IMG/VR virus record: IMGVR_UViG_3300027733_000001
Source: a virus
Length of the DNA: 64,000 nt
Reading direction: 5' to 3' (one strand)
In this document: positions 27,656 through 64,000 of the stretch, one piece after another
Layout: every line of letters begins with the position of its first letter
Numbering within the stretch: the stretch's first letter is position 1
Notes under the pieces: generated by a model
The model's input: the letters and a program-made list of their open reading frames with translations, nothing else
Told to the model about the DNA's origin: nothing
Databases searched by the model: none
Made by a program: the position numbers and the translations under genes

Positions 27656-29506
27656 TTAACTCTTTTCTCCAAAACCTACACCATACGCTAGTCCTGGAAT
27701 GGGACTGGCGCCTTTTAAGTCTGATGTAGCGCCTTTATTAACCATATTAACGAAACGTTTGGCTAGATTGGTGCTGTTTAAAACATGCATCCAATCGTCA
27801 TGGTGCTCTGGAATATCTACAAGACGCACCATCACAGGCTCAAAATTAGGATGCTCGTCATGAACAAGCACAGCTTCGATATTATGCTTTTTAAGCTCCG
27901 AGATGACGGCTGAGGTGACCTTTGTACCTATAGTGTAGTGAAGTTCGGGCTTTTCTAGATATTTACCATATGCCAGATCAAGCCTAAGCATCTTTGCCGC
28001 AGGTCTAGGTACATAGTCTTTTTCTATCGCTGAATAGGATACTACCTGGTCGGGGAGATAGTCACCCATTCCTTCAGGGTCGGTGATCTTTACATGATCG
28101 ATAGCTGCCTTAGCTATCAATTCAAAATTACGCCTGTTGACTGGAAGTTTGCTATCGTCGAAAGCTTTCTTCATAGCCTCCATATAATACTTCCTTCCAT
28201 CACCAATTCCACGGTACTTTACCACTTCTCTAGGGTCTACTAGACCAGAACTGAGTACTTGTCCTTGCTCTACACGGTCACCCAGTTTCACAGTAGGAGT
28301 TTGATCTATACCTATGTAATGTTCATGGTCGTTTACCGAAATAAAATGTCCACCTGCAGCTGCTGGCGCAAGCTTGGTGACAAAACCATCTTCCTGAGCT
28401 AGAGGCGCTCTACCTATGAATGTTTTGGGTACATTCGCAAGCTGATTAATAAGCTTAAAGCCCTGCTGACCCCCTAGACTGGTTGCTGCCCCTCCAGAAT
28501 GCCTAGCTTTCATGGCGCTTTCTGTGAGAGGTTCTGCCACAGCCGTACCTGCAACTAGACCTATATAACTGTCCATCGCAGCCATACCCTTTTCACGCTT
28601 ACCTACACACATCTGACATAATCCGCCGGAATGATGCTTTTTATTTGACTGACACGTCATCGGAGAACGTATGAATATGTGGGACACTCCTTTGTTTTTA
28701 AGGTCTGCCAACATCTTTGCGGTAACCTCATTGTTACGGTTGTGTCCGCCCACAGTTTTGGCTAGATACGCTCCTATAGACTCACGATCACTTATAGGGA
28801 TATCTATACCGTTCAAAGTTTCGCAGTCAGCTTCAACGATCTGCAAAGGCATTAGCGCTCTAGCAAACTGTTTTGATCCGTAACCTCCTTGAGCTACCGA
28901 AATTTTCTTCAGTACCTCTCCAGATCTAGTACCGTAGGCTGTAGTCAAATATTCAGGAAGAGTTAGGCCTTCTGCGAAAGAGCTCTTGATAGGTATATCC
29001 ATCTTGGGCTTACCTGACGCATCGACAACTATACCTTGCGTAGCTATAGTGCCCCTATACTGTGCAGGGGAGCCTCGGGAACCTGCCAGAATAATCTTAG
29101 CCAAAGATTTATTATCCTTGAGTCCTTTATCCAGGATGTCTCGTTCAATACTAGACATCATGTTATTGTAATGATCAAAAATCTGCTTATCTTTTAGAGC
29201 CTGAGAATCGTTGGAAGATTCTACTGTGGTTTTAAATTTCTCAAAATTATCCCATAGCTTGTTCTTGTCTATCGGGGATATCAGATCCTTGAGCGTTATA
29301 GATGTACCCTGTCTGGTGGATATTTCAAAACCTAGCCTTGTCAGATCAGATGCTATCTTACTGTATTCGTTTGGAGCCTTTTCAGCCAGCTCGGCAAACA
29401 ACTTGGATATGCCTTTCCCGTCAAGCATAGCCCCATCAACAAGCTCATGAAATTGATGAGGTATGAAGAATTTCAATAAGACTCTTCCAACAGTCGTGGT
29501 TGCCAT
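27656..29506 (-). CDS. rpoC: DNA-directed RNA polymerase beta-prime subunit, C-terminal part
   Basis: TTVGR, AGSRGS, IKSSFAEGLTLPEY, bridge-helix region, DCET...SPMTC...LCQMC Zn site, trigger loop EPLTESAMKARHSGG, SBHM-like insert. Confidence 0.9.
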   Translation of the reverse strand: MATTTVGRVLLKFFIPHQFHELVDGAMLDGKGISKLFAELAEKAPNEYSKIASDLTRLGFEISTRQGTSITLKDLISPIDKNKLWDNFEKFKTTVESSNDSQALKDKQIFDHYNNMMSSIERDILDKGLKDNKSLAKIILAGSRGSPAQYRGTIATQGIVVDASGKPKMDIPIKSSFAEGLTLPEYLTTAYGTRSGEVLKKISVAQGGYGSKQFARALMPLQIVEADCETLNGIDIPISDRESIGAYLAKTVGGHNRNNEVTAKMLADLKNKGVSHIFIRSPMTCQSNKKHHSGGLCQMCVGKREKGMAAMDSYIGLVAGTAVAEPLTESAMKARHSGGAATSLGGQQGFKLINQLANVPKTFIGRAPLAQEDGFVTKLAPAAAGGHFISVNDHEHYIGIDQTPTVKLGDRVEQGQVLSSGLVDPREVVKYRGIGDGRKYYMEAMKKAFDDSKLPVNRRNFELIAKAAIDHVKITDPEGMGDYLPDQVVSYSAIEKDYVPRPAAKMLRLDLAYGKYLEKPELHYTIGTKVTSAVISELKKHNIEAVLVHDEHPNFEPVMVRLVDIPEHHDDWMHVLNSTNLAKRFVNMVNKGATSDLKGASPIPGLAYGVGFGEKS

Positions 29507-31093: not shown

Positions 31094-34087
31094 TTATACA
31101 TCCACCCGATCGCCAACATCAAGCTTTCCCGCTAAAAAATCTTTCACAACTTCTTGAGCCGAAGAATATTTCTTGGGAGTATTTTTCTTGTCTTCGAAAC
31201 TAGCTGCAAACAATCCGGTCGCAGATTCGTTTGATGGGGTATACATCGGACCAAAAGTCCTGTGATAGATTAGGTTTTTCTCGGGCAGCAATTTCTCTTT
31301 AATTTCCTCCTTGGCTTCATCCGTAGCCGGGAGCTGCACATTGAGCTGGTCTCCGTCAGAGTCTGCTCCATAACCTTTAAACACTAGTGGACTCATCTTT
31401 ATAGAGAAGTCCTTGGGATCTGGGTTCATCTTCAGGTACATTCCCTGAAAATTGTATTTTGATAGCTGTGGATCTCTAGTCACGATACCCGGCCGATCTT
31501 CCATCTCTAGATGTAGAGCAGTCAAGGCTAACGGATGCTTTTTCTCGAGATATTCTCTAGCTTTTGTGGCAGGTACTCCTTGGCGCACAAGTCGACGAAT
31601 AATGAACGGTCCAAAGATATTCCAGGCCAGCGGCTGAGGAATACTTGCCTGATTAAGATCTAGTTTAGCGTCAGGTAACAATACAGCTCTACCTACCAGG
31701 TCAATAGGTTTGTTAACAACCTTCGCCTGGAACATAGACTCTTTCGCTGATCCGCCTTGAAGGCCTAGAGCCGAAGCAAGCAACCCTTTATATTTTTTCT
31801 CAATACTTTTCTGTTTGATGGGACCGCCGAGACCATACACAGCCTTAAGCCCGTTATAGATTTGTTTTCTTGCGGTGTGTAAATGCTCCGGATCAGTGTC
31901 TGGATTGTCTTTTGCCTGTCCTAGCGAGTTGTTAACAAGCATAAGATCTTTATACAGCTCATTAACATCTGCAGTTAATGCCTGATCTCCCTGAACCATG
32001 ACAGGGCGATATTGGGCAGGAATGACCGGGATGTTAGACAACAGTATGTCATCTAGCTTAAGATTATTGCTCTTAAGCATTGTAAGGAAGCTCAGACTTT
32101 TAAGTGCGTTGTCTCTCCCTGTCTTGCGTTTAGATTTTACCAAATTCTTAAGCTCTGTAATCTTATGATCGATATCTATACGTTTAATTTCTTTCTCAAG
32201 TTTGCCTGAGGCAATAGCTTCCTCGAAAGCGACTTTTGTCATGTTAAGTAATTTACGCAAATGATCTTCAACCATAGGATTTGGGATCCTATGGTGTAAT
32301 GCCACATGATTGTAATGGTCGCCATGAATACCTACAAGGGTAGGGTCAAATAGTCCGTTGTCTTCTGGAACTAGCTCATCTTTTTTGATTTTATAGCTGA
32401 GAGGTTCTTTAATTTCTCCTCGAGACATAGCTACAATGTCTTTGTCTGTCTGAGGTAGAATATGGAATTTAGAACCTTCTTGCTGCACATTTACACCTGC
32501 CCCTTTAAGGTGACCTATAAATTTTCCAAAGATAAACGGCACTTTAGGGGGAGGAGGAGGCTGACCTAGTTTTAAAGCAGTCCAATACTCGTCATTCTTT
32601 GTAGCCCGTACTGTGGCAATATCTCGTAGCACAGCTGTAGCATCATTAGATAATGCCACTGTGGTAGCTAGATTACCGACACGCTTAGCTTTTTCGTGAG
32701 AGCCTGCCTTGCTCGGCTGCATATTAATATCGTACGTAGTGGCTGCAGACCTCGTAGATACTTTGTCTTCTGCTATATGATGTAGCCGGTTAAAATATAA
32801 AGGGCCTGTCAAAACATCGATATGCTTACCTGATTGAGGGTCATAGAGTTTTTCTGTATCTTTGACTCCGTGCTTATCGAGAATATCTATGACTTTCTGT
32901 ACGGCTGAACCTTCTGTGAACCCTGTCATCTTAAGAGGTTTGCCTAGCTTTTGAGCGAGTTTGCCTAGTCCGATAGTGTTAACCAATCCTGGAGCTACAC
33001 GAGATGTAACACTCATCGAATTAAGCATTACATCTATGGGCTTACCGTCCTCTCCTTGAGGCATGTGAGTATCTGGAATGATATGTACGACACCTTTTGC
33101 ACCGAAAGGCATATTAAGCTTATCTCCGAAGCTCATCGGTCTTTTTGTTTTAACAGTAACAGCAATCAGCTTACCTGAGTTAGATACATCCGTTACCTCT
33201 CCATCATATTCATACTCCCAGGGGATGGATACATCCGAAAATGCATTACGAATTACCTTTGCCAGCTTACCTAGCTGGATATCTACCGATTTAAGTGTCT
33301 TTGGCTGAAAAGCCAGAATGACAGGGTCTCCGTGCTTTAAAATAGTTCCTTTTTTGGCTACACCTGCCGAATCTACGCTGACCAGCTGATCATTATAGTA
33401 CTTGTTTGGGAACAGTGATACATACTTATCCTTGTCGACAATCACTCCACGGGCAACCTCCATTCTCACAGGTATCAACTGCTCTCCCTCTAGCTTTTTT
33501 GCTGCAGATTCGGAAATTGCCAGAGAATCTTCAAAGTTTAAAGATCTGAAAGGCATAATCGCCGTTTTGAGGTTCATTCCAAGACTTAAAGAACCTTTGT
33601 GGTCTGAATAGTTTGAAGTAGCCAGCAACTGTCCTGTCTTTACCTTATCTCCTACTTTTACTGTCGGTGTATGGTGGAGATAACTCTCTCTGCCAATAAT
33701 GTAGTTACTGTAGAGATCGTGATGATGCTCTTTTCCGTCAGCATCCTTAATTATCAGCGAATCGTCACTAATGTGATGTACTGTACCTGTTGTTTTGGCA
33801 GAAAGGCTGACCAGCTTACCGAAAGATTCGTTGAAGCTCTGCTTGCTTCCTTTGGCAGAAGACTGAACAAGTGGAGCCTCCCTGTTCACAAGAGTCATGG
33901 CCTGCAATGAAGATTTGTCGCCAATTAGTACACGGGAACCCGACACAGAGCTGAGCCCAGGGATTAGATTTGTAACAGGACTGAAAAACTCTGAAGGATC
34001 AGGAATTCTGTACTTAGCCTTTGTAGATGCTGGGACTTTGGTCAGCTTACCGTGCTGAAGTATATATTTGTGACCTTGGGTAGACAT
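31094..34087 (-). CDS. rpoB-rpoC: RNA polymerase beta C-terminal / beta-prime N-terminal fusion containing the catalytic centre
   Basis: beta motifs NLIP...QAM, NFEDSLAISE, GDKL...GAKG, DVMLN...SRV, RLHHIAEDK; then beta-prime SRGEI, GLFD, IPVIPAQYRP, KPIDLVGRAV, TRDPQL, GADSDGDQ; start revised to ATG 34087. Confidence 0.92.
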   Translation of the reverse strand: MSTQGHKYILQHGKLTKVPASTKAKYRIPDPSEFFSPVTNLIPGLSSVSGSRVLIGDKSSLQAMTLVNREAPLVQSSAKGSKQSFNESFGKLVSLSAKTTGTVHHISDDSLIIKDADGKEHHHDLYSNYIIGRESYLHHTPTVKVGDKVKTGQLLATSNYSDHKGSLSLGMNLKTAIMPFRSLNFEDSLAISESAAKKLEGEQLIPVRMEVARGVIVDKDKYVSLFPNKYYNDQLVSVDSAGVAKKGTILKHGDPVILAFQPKTLKSVDIQLGKLAKVIRNAFSDVSIPWEYEYDGEVTDVSNSGKLIAVTVKTKRPMSFGDKLNMPFGAKGVVHIIPDTHMPQGEDGKPIDVMLNSMSVTSRVAPGLVNTIGLGKLAQKLGKPLKMTGFTEGSAVQKVIDILDKHGVKDTEKLYDPQSGKHIDVLTGPLYFNRLHHIAEDKVSTRSAATTYDINMQPSKAGSHEKAKRVGNLATTVALSNDATAVLRDIATVRATKNDEYWTALKLGQPPPPPKVPFIFGKFIGHLKGAGVNVQQEGSKFHILPQTDKDIVAMSRGEIKEPLSYKIKKDELVPEDNGLFDPTLVGIHGDHYNHVALHHRIPNPMVEDHLRKLLNMTKVAFEEAIASGKLEKEIKRIDIDHKITELKNLVKSKRKTGRDNALKSLSFLTMLKSNNLKLDDILLSNIPVIPAQYRPVMVQGDQALTADVNELYKDLMLVNNSLGQAKDNPDTDPEHLHTARKQIYNGLKAVYGLGGPIKQKSIEKKYKGLLASALGLQGGSAKESMFQAKVVNKPIDLVGRAVLLPDAKLDLNQASIPQPLAWNIFGPFIIRRLVRQGVPATKAREYLEKKHPLALTALHLEMEDRPGIVTRDPQLSKYNFQGMYLKMNPDPKDFSIKMSPLVFKGYGADSDGDQLNVQLPATDEAKEEIKEKLLPEKNLIYHRTFGPMYTPSNESATGLFAASFEDKKNTPKKYSSAQEVVKDFLAGKLDVGDRVDV

Positions 34088-34141
34088 AGAAGTGATCGTA
34101 CGGCACGAGATAAAAAATATCAATCTGCTTATTCAGATCTG

Positions 34142-34441
34142 TTAAGAGTCTGACTCATCCTGGAAGCGTAGCCCGCATCTCCACAAAGCTTCAGCCATGT
34201 CGTCGGAGATCTCATCCACGACGTCGTTCTGTATTTCCCACAGTGCGCAATGAATGAACTCGTCGATGAGGGTAGATAGCAGCTCTTTGCCTTTTTCCCT
34301 CTCGTCGATATAGACGGTCTTATTCTTGGTTTCAGGATGCTCGCACATCCCACGCGCTCCTTTGAGGCGAGTAACCACAAAGTTATACCTCTTTCCTCTG
34401 ATGGTAATGGTCTTGATCTGCTTTAGGGCCTTTGCGCTCAT
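34142..34441 (-). CDS. Small zincin-like protein (DExxH variant)
   Basis: GMC...VYID...LSTLIDEFIHC resembles phage minimal metallopeptidases; start revised to ATG 34441. Confidence 0.5.
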   Translation of the reverse strand: MSAKALKQIKTITIRGKRYNFVVTRLKGARGMCEHPETKNKTVYIDEREKGKELLSTLIDEFIHCALWEIQNDVVDEISDDMAEALWRCGLRFQDESDS

Positions 34442-34448
34442 AAAAAAC

Positions 34449-34477
34449 ATTATACCTGGGTTTCAGAGGCTTGGCAA
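34449..34477 (-). promoter_or_regulatory. sigma70-type promoter heading the leftward operon, probably leaderless
   Basis: TTGCCA-17-TATAAT-7-ATG. Confidence 0.75.
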
Positions 34478-34603
34478 CACCTCCCAGAGATGGTGGGGTG
34501 CGCTAGGCCTGTATTTAGTTGATAGTCCTCCAAAACTCCCCAACTCATTCTCATCTTTACTCGTGACATTCCCTACCCCATCGTACATCTCTAGATAGTT
34601 CTC

Positions 34604-36238
34604 ATGATCATTCCAAAGGCTAGAATCTCCAGCGCAGATGTAGACGCTCTCATAAGCTGCGCAAGCATTGACGACTCCTATAGCTTCTCTTCTGCTGAAA
34701 CTGAGGCTCATGATGTCTCTCTCACTCCTGACTCTTTTGACTACGACTATACCTATGCGAAAACTGTACCTGCTCCCTCTGACAGTCTCATAGAGAAGTT
34801 TAACTCTCACTCTAGTGACCTATACAATGCTGCTTGTAGTGTTCGCTCCTCTAGGAAGGTTGTCTCTAGATATGACATTAACTGGACTAGCATCGAAGAC
34901 TATACGATGCACTGGAATCTCCTAGATAAAGAGTCTCAGGTCTCTATTCGCTCTCTGGTTCTGAGTGACCATGCTAACGCTAACAGGTTTGGTCTGAAAA
35001 AACGAAATCTAGAATCTCATCTCTTGCTTCATATAGGCTGTGACATGGACAACATTGTAAACAACGGCGGTGAGAGTGTTCGCTCTAATCTCAAGTCTCC
35101 AGATCCTAAAAGCCCCAACAAGGGCTATTCAAGGTCCTGCCTGCACAACCGTACTGTAGACGCTAAAACAGCTCTCAGGGCATACAAGAAGTTCGACAAA
35201 GAGTTCTCTCCTGCTCATCTCTTCAAACTAGGCTTTGTTGCCTATCAGGCTGTAATCACTCCCAAGAACTCTCTAGCTCTGGATATTGACCCTCACAAAA
35301 CCAAGGAAGCTATCCACAGCTTCTTTCGCAAGAACACAGAGTTCCTGAGCAAGCTAGCCAACAAAAGGCGCAAGATCATGAGCTATGCCTACAGTCATGA
35401 AATCAGTGTAGATTCTATCCTCGACAGTGTGTACCGGCCTCATACCCATGTACTCTTCTTTGTGAAAGCAGACAGATATGCTATCGAGGAAAGCCAGCGC
35501 TTTGTAGAGAGTCTAGAGGAATCTATCAATCTAGAGCTAGCTGACAGAAACTGGAGCACCCACAAGCTGTCTGTAGACGGAGAGATGCTTCCATCTGTAG
35601 CCAGAAAGTATTCTGAGATAGAAAGAAGCTTCGAGTACTTCCATCGCGCATACAGTCTAGCTGACCAGTATATGCGTGAAATCAGAGAAGACAACGTACG
35701 AGAGCTCAACAAAGCCACAGTAGAAGCCTATAGAAACCTGATCTGGTTCTTCAGGGGCGAGGAGGGTGGAGCTGGAAGAAGAGGAATCGCCAGATTCAGA
35801 TCAAGTCACATCCCTAGAAAGGACGAGACTAGCAATTACCTACATCCACTATTGTCAAAAGCTAAAAAAACCACTACAATCAAGAAAGAAAAATTAAAAG
35901 TCAAGAACTATGCCCATAGTGTGGCTGCTTCTACAGTTGTAGAACCATCTATCCTAGAGGCTAAAAATACTCTACCTAGCTATGCAAAGACTGAACGAAG
36001 AGCCTCAAGAGCAGGAAAAATCTGCATCGCTTCAAGAGTATCTGAACTACTTGCGCCTAGAACTACACAAGCAGGCACAAGAGCTTGGAGAAGACTGCCC
36101 ATACAGCAAAGAAAGAATCGACGAGATCACCAGCAGTGCCGAGAGCTTCGAGAAGGCTGCACAGGAAGAGGCTCAGTGTGTCTGGGCAGGAATCGAAGAC
36201 GTCTTGCGCAAAGAGGGAGCAGATCAAGACTTCATTGA
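34604..36238 (+). CDS. HUH endonuclease, rolling-circle Rep-like
   Basis: Motif 1-like AVITPKN, motif 2 SYAYSHEISV...YRPHTHVLFF (35432..35461), candidate motif 3 FEYFHR; last 257 nt overlap next gene. Confidence 0.6.
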   Translation: MIIPKARISSADVDALISCASIDDSYSFSSAETEAHDVSLTPDSFDYDYTYAKTVPAPSDSLIEKFNSHSSDLYNAACSVRSSRKVVSRYDINWTSIEDYTMHWNLLDKESQVSIRSLVLSDHANANRFGLKKRNLESHLLLHIGCDMDNIVNNGGESVRSNLKSPDPKSPNKGYSRSCLHNRTVDAKTALRAYKKFDKEFSPAHLFKLGFVAYQAVITPKNSLALDIDPHKTKEAIHSFFRKNTEFLSKLANKRRKIMSYAYSHEISVDSILDSVYRPHTHVLFFVKADRYAIEESQRFVESLEESINLELADRNWSTHKLSVDGEMLPSVARKYSEIERSFEYFHRAYSLADQYMREIREDNVRELNKATVEAYRNLIWFFRGEEGGAGRRGIARFRSSHIPRKDETSNYLHPLLSKAKKTTTIKKEKLKVKNYAHSVAASTVVEPSILEAKNTLPSYAKTERRASRAGKICIASRVSELLAPRTTQAGTRAWRRLPIQQRKNRRDHQQCRELREGCTGRGSVCLGRNRRRLAQRGSRSRLH

Positions 36239-36821
36239 CGGATTCAAGAAAGAAGCTTTCGTAGGAGCTATGCTCAGGGGGGCAGGAAAACTAATTCCTG
36301 CCGCAGGCAAAGCAATAGGAAGAGGACTAGGTAAGGTAGGCCCTGCACTAGGAAGAGGTCTAGAGCACGGCATGTATGGTTCTATGGTAGGAAGCTTGAT
36401 TCCAGGAGTAGGAACCACTGTAGGCGGGCTTGCTGGACTAGCTGGAGGAACTCTAGGATATGGCAAAGCAGGTCTGCTTGCCGGAGGAGCGCTAGCTGGA
36501 GGAGCTATGCTAGGAAGAGGAGCTTTTGGAGATTCAGGAAAAGACACTACAGGACTAGAAGCATCCAGAAACAGAGCTCTTCCTTTCGCATCAAACAAAA
36601 CTACTGGGGCAGTAGGAGGAGCATTGCTGGGTTCGCTGCTTGCCAACGAAATGGGTGTGAGCGGTGCAGGTGCATGGATGATGCCTGTGCTTGGAGGTCT
36701 TGCAGGCTATCATCATCTTCCTAACCTGATGGACAAATGGAAAGATCCATATGGCTATGGTGTGAACGCTATAGGTGCTGGTGCAGCAGGTATGAACAGA
36801 GCAATGCCACTAACAGAATAA
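35982..36821 (+). CDS. Gly/Ala-rich K-x-A protein, probable virion/ejection protein
   Basis: EKSAS, KQAQ, EKAA, FIDGFKKEAF followed by long GxxxG hydrophobic region. Confidence 0.6.
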   Translation: MQRLNEEPQEQEKSASLQEYLNYLRLELHKQAQELGEDCPYSKERIDEITSSAESFEKAAQEEAQCVWAGIEDVLRKEGADQDFIDGFKKEAFVGAMLRGAGKLIPAAGKAIGRGLGKVGPALGRGLEHGMYGSMVGSLIPGVGTTVGGLAGLAGGTLGYGKAGLLAGGALAGGAMLGRGAFGDSGKDTTGLEASRNRALPFASNKTTGAVGGALLGSLLANEMGVSGAGAWMMPVLGGLAGYHHLPNLMDKWKDPYGYGVNAIGAGAAGMNRAMPLTE

Positions 36822-40969: not shown

Positions 40970-41612
40970 AAATACTCGCGCGTTTTTCGATCCTGAAAAA
41001 CTGCGGCACATGCTATTCAATACGGCTGTCGATTCTTTCGGTAAGAAGATCAATTCGATCGAGACTCAGGACTATAAACTCAGTGTCAAAAACCTGAAGA
41101 TGGACATCCCTCATGTCACATCTACAATGCAAAAAAAGCTGGTGCTTGAGAAGAAGGATTTGACTGCTCCACTGAAAGGTACAGTAGAGCTAATACACAA
41201 GGCTTCAGGTAAAGTAGTTGAATCTAAACACACTACGATAGCTCACATTCCGTATGTTACTAATCATAATACTGTTATCTATAATGGTTCTGAATATGAG
41301 GCAGTAAATCAGCAGCGGCTTTTACCTGGCATCTATTCAAGAATTCGTCAAGACGGTATACCTGAAGCGCACATCAATCCTGAAGCACGTACAGGGCAGT
41401 CGGGCAGAATTCTTTTCTTACCTGACAAGCAACTTTTTGTACTAATGGTGCGTAACTCTCAGGTTCGATTATATGGCATCCTTAGGGATATGGGTATAAC
41501 TGATGCCGCATTAAAAGACGCGTGGGGTGAGCAGATACTGAACGCTAATCGGACACAATACAAGGGAGACGAGATCGACAAACTTTACACAATCCTAATT
41601 GGCGATGAATGA
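40947..41612 (+). CDS. rpoB: RNA polymerase beta subunit, N-terminal fragment
   Basis: LTAPLKG...IAHIPYVT..NTVIYNGSEYEAVNQQRLLPGIY matches the beta N-terminal Y.APL / G.IP.MT..GTFIINGTERV.VSQL.RSPGV pattern. Confidence 0.8.
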   Translation: MHQSEPPKNTRAFFDPEKLRHMLFNTAVDSFGKKINSIETQDYKLSVKNLKMDIPHVTSTMQKKLVLEKKDLTAPLKGTVELIHKASGKVVESKHTTIAHIPYVTNHNTVIYNGSEYEAVNQQRLLPGIYSRIRQDGIPEAHINPEARTGQSGRILFLPDKQLFVLMVRNSQVRLYGILRDMGITDAALKDAWGEQILNANRTQYKGDEIDKLYTILIGDE

Positions 41613-42009
41613 GATCATTATAGATAACGATGACGCCCCTCACACATATGTGAAGGAGAGCACAGTTGAGGGCTATGGGCTTTTTGCTGCAAAAGACTTT
41701 ATCAAGCATGAGCTAGTCATTGACTACAGGCTTTTTCCTAGAGACTGGAAGAAAAAATTGTTCACAGAACTCTCAGAAGAGCAAATTAGAAAAAACTGGT
41801 ACGTGATGCTGAGCGATGAGGAATGTATCGCTAGCGATAAATGGAGCAAATTCAGCTATATCAATCACTCCAGAGAACCAAACTGTGCTTGGGTGCTGAG
41901 CATTCACAAAATTATCGCTAACAGGGACATAAAGAAAGATGAAGAGCTATTTATTGACTATCGGCTTGAGCCCAGACCAAACAGAGTATGTTACCCAGAA
42001 TGGATTTGA
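41605..42009 (+). CDS. SET-domain lysine methyltransferase
   Basis: GYGLFAAKDF, YINHSREPNC, ANRDIKKDEELFIDY; no post-SET Cys cluster; start overlaps the rpoB-N stop. Confidence 0.85.
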   Translation: MNEIIIDNDDAPHTYVKESTVEGYGLFAAKDFIKHELVIDYRLFPRDWKKKLFTELSEEQIRKNWYVMLSDEECIASDKWSKFSYINHSREPNCAWVLSIHKIIANRDIKKDEELFIDYRLEPRPNRVCYPEWI

Positions 42010-61814: not shown

Positions 61815-64000
61815 CTAGACTACTGCAGGTAAACATAAGAACCGAAGCTCTTGAAGATTTTCTATTTTACGTCCCTTATATACTGCAGAATACGTTACCT
61901 CTTTTTCCTGATTAATTGTTGCAGAGATGATGTTTGTGGCGAGTACATGCTGCGAGTTATAGTCCGCTTTCATCTGTATGTATTTGACAGGATCCTGGAG
62001 ATAGTCCACAATTTCGTTCAATTTATGGTAATTTATTTTTTTACACCTAGCTGCAACATCCATAGGTAGTGGTTCAAGTTTAGCTAGATGTAGCTCAACA
62101 GTGTCCAGATCATCTAAAGACAGCTGAGTTAGTATTTTCTCATAGTTAGAAAGCCTACGTTTTTTGATGATGGACATGTTGCCAGTCATTCTTTTCCGTA
62201 AGTCTGTTTTATCTAGATGAAGAATTAATAAATTTGGTAGTGCCTTTACTCCGGGCACATCTTTACTATGGCAAAGATTTACTCCTGGACCACCAGCACT
62301 ATTGAATACATTTGCTTTGGAACTGACTACAACTTTACCGTGACGCACACACTCGCTTAGATTGTATGGATTTAATTTAAAATGCTTGAACTTCTCGATG
62401 CTCGGCTCAAACAGATCCTCTAATCTAGGTGAATTACTAAGCCACAAACCACTCAACGCAGAATTACCTTCGTGTTTCTGTAATACCTCCAAAAACGAGT
62501 TGAAGCTGAAGCTGTTTAGTGCTGGATCAAAATACGCTATAAATTCGTCGGTATCTAAAAAGCACAAGAACTTAGCGGTAGCTCGCACCAAGTCATAAAA
62601 ACTTTGATTGAGTTTGGTGTCGGGGAGTACAATGGGATTACCTTCGAAATTAAATAGTGTATATGGCTTGTCTTTGTACTTTTCATACACAGCCAGCGTA
62701 TATGGGCAGTCGCTACCATTATCTACAACCACTATATTATGCCAGCCGACCAAAGCTGCGTGATACTGTAACCAAGCATCAAGTAACGCACCTTCATTTT
62801 TTGTTTTGAGTATTATCTTGAGCAATGAACGCTCGTCTTTTGCTGCAGGTGTACTGTTCACTGTTCTCAACGCCTGCTGAATCGCAGCATCTATATTGCT
62901 GTATTCAATATTTTTTATTTTTGATACTTCTGCCAGTAGTCCACTTAACCTGTTCGTATGTACTCGATCATTTAATTTTGCAGATACAAAAGAATTGAAT
63001 ATCTTCGGAAACGGAGAACTAAAACCTCTCAACTTTGTAGTGGGAGACCTTCCGTCAATAGTGGCTTGAATGACATCAGTGTATAAGAAAGGTTGATCTT
63101 TTGGAGTACTGAGGTTGAGTAGATACTCGGCAGGATTTTTGTAATACTCTGAAATTTCTCGGTTGTTATGCTTCCAGTTCTCTTTGATAGATTCGTTCTT
63201 ATCAAAAAACTCTGCGATACTCCATTCAGGATTCTCGGACATGACGTGATTTATCTTACTTTTAATTCTATCTTCAATCTGTGTTTTATGGAGGTGTAAC
63301 ATCAATAGTTCCGGACAATAAGTAAGGTCGCGGCTGATGCTGTTGTGTGTACGCATACTGTTCTCCGTACTATTCAAGAAAATTGCTTTTCCTTTTACAA
63401 TATCCCACCAAGGGTTGGTTACAGAAAAGTCAGTTACATCCACTATATTCTCGTAGTCTTTCCCGTAGTAGTTATTGAATATCCAGCTTGTAGTCAGTGT
63501 GTGATTATTCTTATTCTGTTTTAAGAACGGCACTAATTTAGAGTTATCTATTACCTCTCTTTCATAGTCATAAAAACAAAGATACTCGTCGGTATCTAGA
63601 ATTGCATGGAATAGACTGCATTTTTGTATGTCTTCGTAAAAGTTTAAAAACCTGCGAGAGTTACACAAATGCTCGTGGAAGCCGTCGAACGGATATACAA
63701 GTACATTGTATTTTTTATAGATATCCTGCACCTTTTGACTAGTGCTGTTGTTGTCTATTACTATGATGTTATGGTTACCCACAAGAGCTATGTGGTACTG
63801 TAGCCAAGGCTCTAATAAAAACTCTTCGTCTTTTGTTTTGAGTACCAGTTTTAAAGCTGTGTGCTTATCTGGAGCATAAAAGCTACCTGTTCTTTTGCCT
63901 AGATAAGATAGCCAGTGCTTGTAAGCAGCTCTATCGTCGTTAAATTTTATGTTTAGGCTCTTGCTGTAAAAAACCGCATCAAACTCAGGGTCTACACAGT
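61815..64000 (-). CDS. Tandem GT-A (family 2-like) glycosyltransferase, 5-prime truncated by window
   Basis: Frame stays open to 63998; two domains (LKTKDE...WLQYH...IIVIDN...LDTDEY and LKTKNE...WLQYH...VVVDNGS...LDTDEF); upstream FDAVFY...HW..LG motif. Confidence 0.8.
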   Translation of the reverse strand, partial: CVDPEFDAVFYSKSLNIKFNDDRAAYKHWLSYLGKRTGSFYAPDKHTALKLVLKTKDEEFLLEPWLQYHIALVGNHNIIVIDNNSTSQKVQDIYKKYNVLVYPFDGFHEHLCNSRRFLNFYEDIQKCSLFHAILDTDEYLCFYDYEREVIDNSKLVPFLKQNKNNHTLTTSWIFNNYYGKDYENIVDVTDFSVTNPWWDIVKGKAIFLNSTENSMRTHNSISRDLTYCPELLMLHLHKTQIEDRIKSKINHVMSENPEWSIAEFFDKNESIKENWKHNNREISEYYKNPAEYLLNLSTPKDQPFLYTDVIQATIDGRSPTTKLRGFSSPFPKIFNSFVSAKLNDRVHTNRLSGLLAEVSKIKNIEYSNIDAAIQQALRTVNSTPAAKDERSLLKIILKTKNEGALLDAWLQYHAALVGWHNIVVVDNGSDCPYTLAVYEKYKDKPYTLFNFEGNPIVLPDTKLNQSFYDLVRATAKFLCFLDTDEFIAYFDPALNSFSFNSFLEVLQKHEGNSALSGLWLSNSPRLEDLFEPSIEKFKHFKLNPYNLSECVRHGKVVVSSKANVFNSAGGPGVNLCHSKDVPGVKALPNLLILHLDKTDLRKRMTGNMSIIKKRRLSNYEKILTQLSLDDLDTVELHLAKLEPLPMDVAARCKKINYHKLNEIVDYLQDPVKYIQMKADYNSQHVLATNIISATINQEKEVTYSAVYKGRKIENLQELRFLCLPAVV

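Follow-up and report, generated by a model that had tools for sequence, protein, structure and literature searches.

Rolling-circle Rep nickases are a hallmark of small plasmids and single-stranded DNA (ssDNA) viruses, and also of a few tailed phages of small size. In the tailed double-stranded DNA (dsDNA) phage P2, protein A is an initiator of the HUH (His-hydrophobic-His) type, which nicks an origin inside its own gene. Phage_GPA (PF05840), which comprises P2 A and phiX174 A, is counted among the viral HUH families (PMC5714925), and Rep_1 initiators nick the double-strand origin upstream of rep at CTTGATA (PMC10378824). Here we describe a Rep-like gene in a stretch of 64,000 nt (the window) of the IMG/VR virus record IMGVR_UViG_3300027733_000001, the full record being 167,754 bp long with a CheckV completeness estimate of 86%. 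Sequence comparison and structure modelling indicate that the encoded protein, hereafter Rep, very probably has an HUH fold with an intact active site. A divergent predicted Rep nickase with its catalytic residues preserved is a fixed core gene in an uncultured clade of phages of ~150-210 kb, which also encode a split RNA polymerase, a helicase and a polymerase.

The fold of Rep residues 1-440 was modelled with AlphaFold2 on an alignment of 46 sequences (mean predicted local distance difference test score, pLDDT, 85.2; predicted template modelling score, pTM, 0.81). The model exhibits the five-stranded antiparallel sheet and the beta-alpha-beta-beta-alpha-beta core of HUH nucleases. Strand 211-220 (AYQAVIT) is followed by helix 230-254, by strands 260-271 (SYAYSHEISVDS) and 276-288 (YRPHTHVLFFV), by helix 294-311 and three short strands, and finally by helix 340-347. 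The His-hydrophobic-His motif, H280-T281-H282, is predicted to lie on the central strand 276-288 and the possible third metal ligand, E266, on the neighbouring strand 260-271. The tyrosine of motif 3, Y345, is placed on the helix after the sheet.

An earlier reading of this DNA, made from its letters alone (the original prediction), had reported three Rep-type motifs in order, and these were recovered on the matching modelled elements: AVITPKN on the first strand of the sheet, SHEISV...YRPHTHVLFF (residues 264-287) on the strand pair 260-271 and 276-288, and FEYFHR on the last helix. In line with that prediction an HUH fold is modelled, and the two histidines, the glutamate and the tyrosine are invariant. 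The hydrophobic position had been read as Thr, which is correct since T281 is nearly invariant. The proposed YxxR holds for Tyr345, which is invariant, but not for the arginine, which is replaced in part of the family (R, N or K). Likewise, AVITPKN is located where expected but its Asn is not conserved; the nearly invariant residues in this region are Q215 and V217.

In the 46 close homologues the invariant residues are F240, E266, S268, S271, I272, Y277, H280, H282, D314, R315, Y345, L352, Y356, R358 and E359, and in 30 distant ones (22-33% identity) K132, E266, P279, H280, H282, Y345 and N369. Over close and distant homologues Y350 and Y356 are less conserved than Tyr345. E266 sits 14 residues ahead of the HUH histidines, C146 is the single nearly invariant cysteine of the phage family, and the conserved core as a whole extends from residue 58 to ~430. 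The close set was obtained by a word-indexed search, which returned 46 metagenomic proteins of 37-62% identity, the longest of their source contigs measuring 207 kb. When 1.84 billion representatives were searched exhaustively with HMMER, 80 metagenomic cluster representatives were returned; ~35 homologues count as distant, and the conservation analysis at this distance covered 30 sequences. The cultured-phage records of INPHARED gave no match by tblastn or megablast, and PHROGs held no family for Rep, for the next gene (hereafter ORF2) or for the small proteins downstream. A keyword search over 8.4 million papers found no description of this HUH family, which does not prove that none exists.

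The position of Rep among HUH nucleases was assessed by structure and by profile comparison. In the ESM Atlas the sole named neighbours were three separate Rep_1 (PF01446) clusters, with 226-241 residues aligned and template modelling scores by target of 0.60, 0.72 and 0.58. Since these alignments span query residues 69-412, the helical N-domain belongs to the shared fold. HUH nucleases also headed the VIA list. With Foldseek no PDB entry reached E <= 1e-3, the weak rows including Helitron, adeno-associated virus (AAV) Rep (probability 0.98) and minute virus of mice (MVM) NS1, and a sequence-profile search of the PDB returned a spurious low-complexity match only. In Pfam, Rep residues 248-294 of the window protein were aligned to Rep_1 profile positions 77-122, and two of the distant members matched Rep_1 as well. 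REP_ORF2-G2P (PF23343) was weakly matched by 15 of the 30 distant members (E 0.001-1) over the HUH-to-Tyr region (profile positions ~11-93 of 99). When the Rep family was compared by hhalign with an alignment of pUB110 Rep, pC194 RepA and ten relatives (A6; P 5e-4), SHEISVDS...PHTHVLFF was paired with ATEVT...QHMHVLVC of pUB110 Rep and E266 with E163, and motif 3 came to lie no more than five residues from the E-x-x-K-Y tyrosine of pUB110. Because the Rep_1 and REP_ORF2-G2P matches fall below the Pfam cut-offs, the Rep family is, judged by these comparisons, a separate and previously undescribed HUH family, structurally nearest to Rep_1/G2P and outside Rep_1.

Table 1. Features of the Rep locus in the window and segments of the Rep protein (nucleotide positions are those of the window).
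Feature	Position	Strand	Remarks
Rep-like HUH open reading frame	34604..36238	+	544 aa
Rep residues 1-57			variable, unconserved, modelled with low confidence
Rep residues 58-205			helical N-domain
Rep residues 206-410			HUH nuclease domain
Rep residues 415-428			conserved basic end, PLLSKAKKTTTIKK
Rep residues 441-544			non-conserved basic tail
Motif 1, AVITPKN (residues 216-222)	35249..35269	+	first strand of HUH sheet (strand 211-220)
Glu266 (SHEISVDS) and HUH motif H280-T281-H282	35399..35449	+	Glu266 is the candidate third metal ligand
Tyr345, candidate catalytic tyrosine	35636..35638	+	helix 340-347; FEYFHR is residues 343-348
Overprinted Rep tail	35924..36235	+	104 aa, net charge +18; -1 frame of first 85 ORF2 codons
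ORF2, next gene	35982..36821	+	279 aa; +1 frame relative to Rep
Conserved upstream element GTATTTAGTTGATAG	34511-34525	+	~90 nt upstream of Rep ATG; contains GTTGATA
Leftward promoter-like site, TTGCCA-17-TATAAT	34477..34449	-	11/12 positions match
Zincin-like 102-aa gene	34142..34450	-	divergent from Rep, 153 nt upstream
RNA polymerase beta C-terminal half fused to beta' N-terminal half	31094..34123	-	Pfam Rpb2_6 1.4e-43, Rpb1_1, Rpb1_2; synteny anchor

Rep is the first rightward gene behind a long leftward block, and the open reading frame coordinates agree with the original prediction in that its tail overlaps the next gene by 257 nt. The leftward promoter that had been placed back to back with Rep corresponds to the promoter-like site of Table 1, the TTGCCA box of which also occurs in the related locus L001. 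The same gene order was found in 12 other fetched loci of related phages, the largest contig measuring 211 kb. Two of the 12 are redundant (L002, a short duplicate, and L013, a second copy of one sequence type), and presence and synteny in related phages were thereby confirmed. In each of these 13 loci, the window included, the rightward genes begin with Rep, next to the beta/beta' fusion; this neighbouring gene is recorded by name for L001, L003, L004, L005 and L024. In every phage contig examined the minus side runs from the beta' C-part through 2-4 small genes and the beta/beta' fusion to a gene for 100-133 aa, and on the plus side Rep and ORF2 are followed by a series of small proteins; to the right of ORF2 in the window these are Gly-rich and without known families. 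The long-form Rep gene is single-copy in the phage contigs. The beta' C-part (Rpb1_5) is a separate gene at 27656-29506 (-), and the same split of the RNA polymerase was observed in all related contigs examined. No integrase lies near Rep in the window. A scan of 34000-36400 for inverted repeats (range <=200 nt) revealed weak ones only and no strong ones, element-scale flanking terminal repeats not having been specifically sought.

A FastTree phylogeny of the Rep family, with a midpoint root for drawing only, split off, with 96% local support, a single clade of 61 phage forms from 26 forms that are mostly short and tail-less (330-420 aa). Several of the short forms reside in small integrated elements. 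In L014 a tyrosine integrase, HTH_17 and AAA_25 precede a short Rep, with a Planctomycete-type cytochrome gene adjoining, and in L016 a short Rep has an HTH_17 neighbour. Three copies (L017-L019) were found in Spartobacteria and Chthoniobacteraceae metagenome-assembled genomes, two of them in one genome; one copy lies by a phage-type integrase and one between flagellar genes and a polysaccharide lyase. These sequences fit a history in which the phage clade acquired Rep from a small rolling-circle element of its host lineage and then fixed it; the direction of capture is what we infer, because the root of the tree is not established. The short homologues in Verrucomicrobiota elements also provide a lead to Verrucomicrobiota as hosts of the phage clade.

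Beyond PLLSKAKKTTTIKK (residues 415-428) the Rep sequences cannot be aligned. ORF2, which begins in this region, has a conserved helical N-region (...FEKAAQEEA...KEGADQDFIDGFKKEA), a Gly-rich hydrophobic part and a conserved WKDPYGYG end; it resembles Gly-zipper proteins, which is taken as a lead only. In five relatives (P0049, P0052, P0055, P0070 and P0103) Rep and ORF2 are joined in frame into a single polypeptide, that of P0049 being 1093 aa long and present on 8 contigs; such joining had gone unnoticed in the original prediction. The fusions are arranged as Rep core, variable linker and ORF2 protein (FEKAAQEEA...KEGADxDFIDG..KEA; C-terminal WKDPYGYG). Both parts are present in 12 loci, of which three carry an in-frame fusion, nine an ORF2 in the +1 frame and none an ORF2 in the -1 frame, and when the tail-less L006 is counted ORF2 is in +1 at 10/10 unfused loci. 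In the nine unfused loci the ORF2 ATG is located 0-60 nt past the end of the Rep core, and the Rep frame stays open for a further 104-178 codons. The ORF2 frame opens no more than ~40 nt from the core end in seven of the nine, and in L007 and L012 it is open already ~150-175 nt upstream, inside the Rep core. The fused forms retain a Met at the ORF2 start position.

The synonymous codons of ORF2 were permuted and the open length in the Rep frame was measured. Past the ORF2 ATG the real Rep frame is open for 84-169 codons, against shuffled medians of 5-20 (P <= 0.002 in each of the nine), and the third frame over ORF2 closes after 0-10 codons. As a control, 110 genes of the genome were compared, and ORF2 was the most extreme of them for an overlapping open frame (84 codons versus a median of 7). 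The recurrence of the open tail, the shuffling and this control indicate that the overlap is selected, and is neither an assembly indel nor due to chance; an indel that had removed a stop, as considered in the original prediction, is rejected since the tail is open, and non-randomly so, in nine independent loci. Net charges of +9 to +28 make the tails basic in 8/9; they are Ser/Thr-rich, and their sequence is not conserved. The fused state has changed at least four times on the tree, and the fused P0052 differs from the tailed P0038 (88% DNA identity) by one extra A, 2 nt before the ORF2 ATG.

Rep and the Gly-rich ORF2 appear functionally linked, since translation beyond the Rep core yields either a tail or a fusion of the two. 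Our reading of these sequences is that ORF2 would initiate translation on its own, and that a C-terminal extension of Rep is tolerated or useful, be it the basic overprinted tail or ORF2 itself. A check of the ORF2 ATG for a Shine-Dalgarno sequence was uninformative, most genes of the genome being without one. Across the window Shine-Dalgarno sequences are scarce and most genes have A-rich leaders or abut the preceding stop, a few head genes (14485, 15727, 18165) being exceptions. Within Rep, ~100 nt ahead of the ORF2 ATG, there is a sigma-70-like TTGTCA-17-TACAAT (10/12 positions) at 35852-35880 (+), which could be an internal ORF2 promoter. An imperfect direct repeat of 36 nt, with 78% identity and 62 nt of spacing, was also noted in the Rep-ORF2 overlap, at 36066-36163 (+). 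When the Rep core and the ORF2 N-region were co-folded the score was 0.00, which counts neither way.

Upstream of Rep the intergenic regions of eight loci align poorly, and their sole invariant block has the consensus GTATATAGTTGATAGTT. A weight matrix built from the eight instances gave one strong match in the 167.7-kb genome, the element of Table 1 (21.1 versus 17.0 for the next match), and in the other contributing loci the own site was by far the strongest match. At the same position no strong matrix match was found in L004, L006, L007 and L010. A scan of the window with <=3 mismatches gave seven matches, the other six all with 3 mismatches, and this total is at chance level. GTTGATA is present in the window, L001 and L008, with ATGATA, TCAATA or GATAGTA replacing it at other loci. 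In L003 and L005, unlike the window, the element is flanked by a palindrome of 6 bp, ATATAG/CTATAT. Because the element is unique in the genome, it was discarded as a general promoter, and it is regarded as a lead to a candidate nick or binding site.

The divergent 102-aa protein on the other side of this intergenic region is present in all 13 loci (two duplicating others) and is, with 62-83% identity, more conserved than Rep. Its model, of modest confidence (pLDDT 67), matched almost only zincin metallopeptidases, namely abylysin, CapP and PprI, with Wss1 and SPRTN among them. The HExxH that would be expected of an SprT/Wss1-like zinc-binding helix was not found, the invariant helix motif being DEFIH. 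Wss1 and SPRTN are proteases of DNA-protein crosslinks, and the modelled likeness is weakly suggestive of a Wss1/SPRTN-like protease beside an enzyme that forms covalent DNA adducts.

The composite reading that we hold with moderate confidence, from sequence and model, is that Rep would be a predicted-active HUH nicking-joining enzyme, captured and fixed, that primes rolling-circle-type phage DNA synthesis. The ancestor of the ~150-210 kb phage clade would have taken Rep from small integrative rolling-circle elements of its host lineage, probably Verrucomicrobiota, and the captured gene would then have been fixed as the core gene heading the rightward operon. His280, His282 and Glu266 would hold a divalent metal, and Tyr345 would attack one strand at a specific site and become linked to the 5' phosphate, leaving a free 3'-OH from which the phage replisome could carry out rolling-circle (sigma-type) synthesis of concatemers. 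The best candidate for the nick site would be the GTATTTAGTTGATAG element 90 nt upstream. Translation past the Rep core would run over the ORF2 start, mostly in the -1 frame to give the basic, serine-rich tail and in some lineages as an in-frame fusion. Catalysis, nick site and replication role of Rep are what we infer here.

Several observations weigh against this composite reading. The Rep_1 match of the window protein is under the cut-off (12.8-13.2 bits versus 33.2, E 0.06-0.08), all PF23343 matches lie below the gathering score (14-15 bits versus 27.8) with no match for the window protein, and the hhalign probability was as low as 30%. The likeness of the upstream element to CTTGATA amounts to six bases only, ssDNA folding in seven loci revealed no significant hairpin at it (z -1.3 to +1.2), and it could be an operator or an operon-specific promoter instead. 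A DnaB-like helicase and a divergent family A (PolA-like) polymerase are encoded at 116-119 kb of the contig, ~80 kb from Rep (35.5-37.2 kb in contig coordinates), and the GC skew of the whole 167.7-kb contig tracks gene direction with no origin-like turning point at Rep; neither result lends support to the nearby origin that had been suggested in the original prediction. Furthermore, the L006/P0014 lineage stops Rep directly behind the core, so the tail is dispensable there.

The main alternative, which appears unlikely to us, is that Rep is not a replication initiator but a DNA-end protein that is linked to the virion or acts early. It would be tethered to, or co-expressed with, the Gly-zipper ORF2 and its neighbours as head-internal or ejection proteins, packaged or membrane-acting, and would be bound covalently to the phage DNA end (as a pilot, for circularisation or for end protection) until the zincin-like mini-protease removes it. 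Such a role would agree with the in-frame fusions in five relatives, with the position of Rep between the head/RNA polymerase block and the small Gly-rich proteins, far from the replisome genes, and with the highly conserved zincin-like protein (Wss1 and SPRTN among its fold matches) as constant divergent neighbour. It would also agree with the K-x-A found near N-termini, which clusters in the window at 13.5-39.9 kb, ORF2 included. K-x-A occurs within the first 25 residues of 27/169 genes, against 19.6 +/- 3.8 after shuffling, and the clustered genes (13489-39901) comprise the head region, ORF2 and its neighbours; a shared N-terminal processing or targeting motif may be indicated, but the signal is modest. 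A shared capsid-targeting leader was not confirmed: a profile hidden Markov model of the conserved ORF2 segment found no paralogue in the contig, which counts against this alternative, and all-against-all BLAST of N-termini found tail-fibre-like N-termini only. In addition, near-identical phages switch between the fused and the unfused state, so tethering may be neutral. If the three genes are combined into one module that makes and then resolves a covalent protein-DNA end, a doubtful and still more speculative idea, Rep would attach itself at a phage site, the Gly-zipper ORF2 would carry it to the capsid interior or the membrane, and the DExxH mini-protease would strip it off, the basic tail adding to the first 85 ORF2 codons a second coding layer under selection. 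A rather improbable explanation of the overlap is programmed +1 frameshifting, or an equivalent recoding, by which a share of the ribosomes would pass from the Rep frame into ORF2 and yield a Rep-ORF2 fusion. It would account for ORF2 lying in +1 and never in -1 in 9/9 unfused loci, for the Rep frame being kept open deep into ORF2, and for fused and unfused forms alternating at least four times on the tree, one close pair differing by a single base. On the other hand, neither a prfB-like CUU UGA C nor any other shared slippery site was found in the dual-open region of the nine loci, where the stops (TGA/TAA) and their preceding codons differ, and the Rep frame of L006 is interrupted by stops. 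As a slippage route into ORF2, the A7 run at 35865-35871 was tried and is out, as that frame stops at 35895, 35940 and 35955. There is moreover an ATG at the ORF2 start in every locus, the fused ones included, and in the unfused loci a stop 4-13 codons upstream, which fits independent initiation.

That Rep is a passenger or the relic of a captured mobile element, with no role or a selfish one only, is decidedly improbable. The nearest non-phage relatives are indeed Reps of small integrated elements, and Rep lies outside the replication module. However, its catalytic residues are invariant over 40-60% sequence divergence, for which reason the inert plasmid relic of the original prediction is unlikely. 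A selfish HUH element, also proposed there, is unlikely because Rep is single-copy with fixed synteny, strictly so in contigs from many samples. The short-range repeat scan and the lack of a nearby integrase point the same way (element-scale terminal repeats were not specifically sought), as does the lineage-specific overlap or fusion acquired with a phage gene. The third origin considered there, a domesticated captured Rep, fits the short homologues in integrase/HTH_17 elements and the conserved, single-copy, syntenic phage form. It is highly improbable that Rep is no HUH nuclease at all but a ferredoxin-like alpha/beta domain in which HxH and Tyr occur by chance. Such a view would draw on the fact that no sequence match reaches the curated cut-offs; against it stand the HUH nucleases heading the VIA list, the Rep_1 clusters as named Atlas matches and the recurrence of two independent Pfam Rep families across members. 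The invariant residues are, furthermore, exactly the metal ligands and the tyrosine, and the Glu-HUH spacing of 13-14 is that of pUB110 Rep.

Three further observations concern other parts of the contig. Its end (167645-167754, outside the window) is a 42-nt tandem repeat, and no terminal direct repeat joining the contig ends was found. In PHROGs the gene at 41599-42009 (+) of the window matched only an unnamed family, and its counterparts in L001 (16229-16633) and L003 (14024-14425) carry a SET (lysine methyltransferase) domain. The product of 61815-63782 (-), 655 aa long, has a family 2 glycosyltransferase domain together with a weak match to ubiquitin C-terminal hydrolase (UCH).

If Rep starts replication, as the composite reading would have it, a large phage would have borrowed the initiation device of a small replicon, with a defined candidate site for the origin. 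The Rep tail is a clean natural case of a long overprinted frame, selected to stay open, that single-base indels convert to and from an in-frame fusion. New HUH enzymes that recognise new sites would also be useful as protein-DNA coupling tags.

Among known systems the HUH domains of parvovirus NS1/Rep and Helitron have 9-13% identity to the phage Rep; those proteins carry superfamily 3 (SF3) or Pif1 helicase domains, whereas the phage Rep has no such domain. REP_ORF2-G2P, which includes the gene II protein of filamentous phages and proteins of small replicons, is weakly matched by half of the distant Rep relatives. P2 A offers a precedent for a Rep in a tailed phage, as in the proposed model too an HUH initiator would nick phage dsDNA and lead to rolling-circle replication. 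No sequence match between the A proteins of P2 or phiX174 and the phage Rep was found, however, and these proteins use a Y-x3-Y pair in contrast to the single invariant Tyr345. P2, with 33 kb, also has no replisome of its own comparable to that of the large phage, and its A gene is neither overlapped with nor fused to a Gly-rich protein. Structurally nearest, along with G2P, is Rep_1, the initiators of rolling-circle plasmids such as RepA of pC194 and RepU of pUB110. The phage Rep differs from these in residing in a phage of ~170 kb, in a length greater by ~200 aa, the C-terminus being either a basic overprinted tail or a Gly-rich protein fused to it, and in having neither the N-region Cys cluster (C56, C79, C84 and C87, invariant in A6) nor the E-x-x-K-Y motif. 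As for the nick motif, CTTGATA in Rep_1, the candidate site upstream of the phage gene has GTTGATA in the window, L001 and L008 and other sequences in other loci. The modelled fold over Rep residues 69-412 nevertheless matches that of Rep_1, and the order of the motifs, the Glu 13-14 residues ahead of HUH and the Tyr-bearing helix after the sheet are shared.

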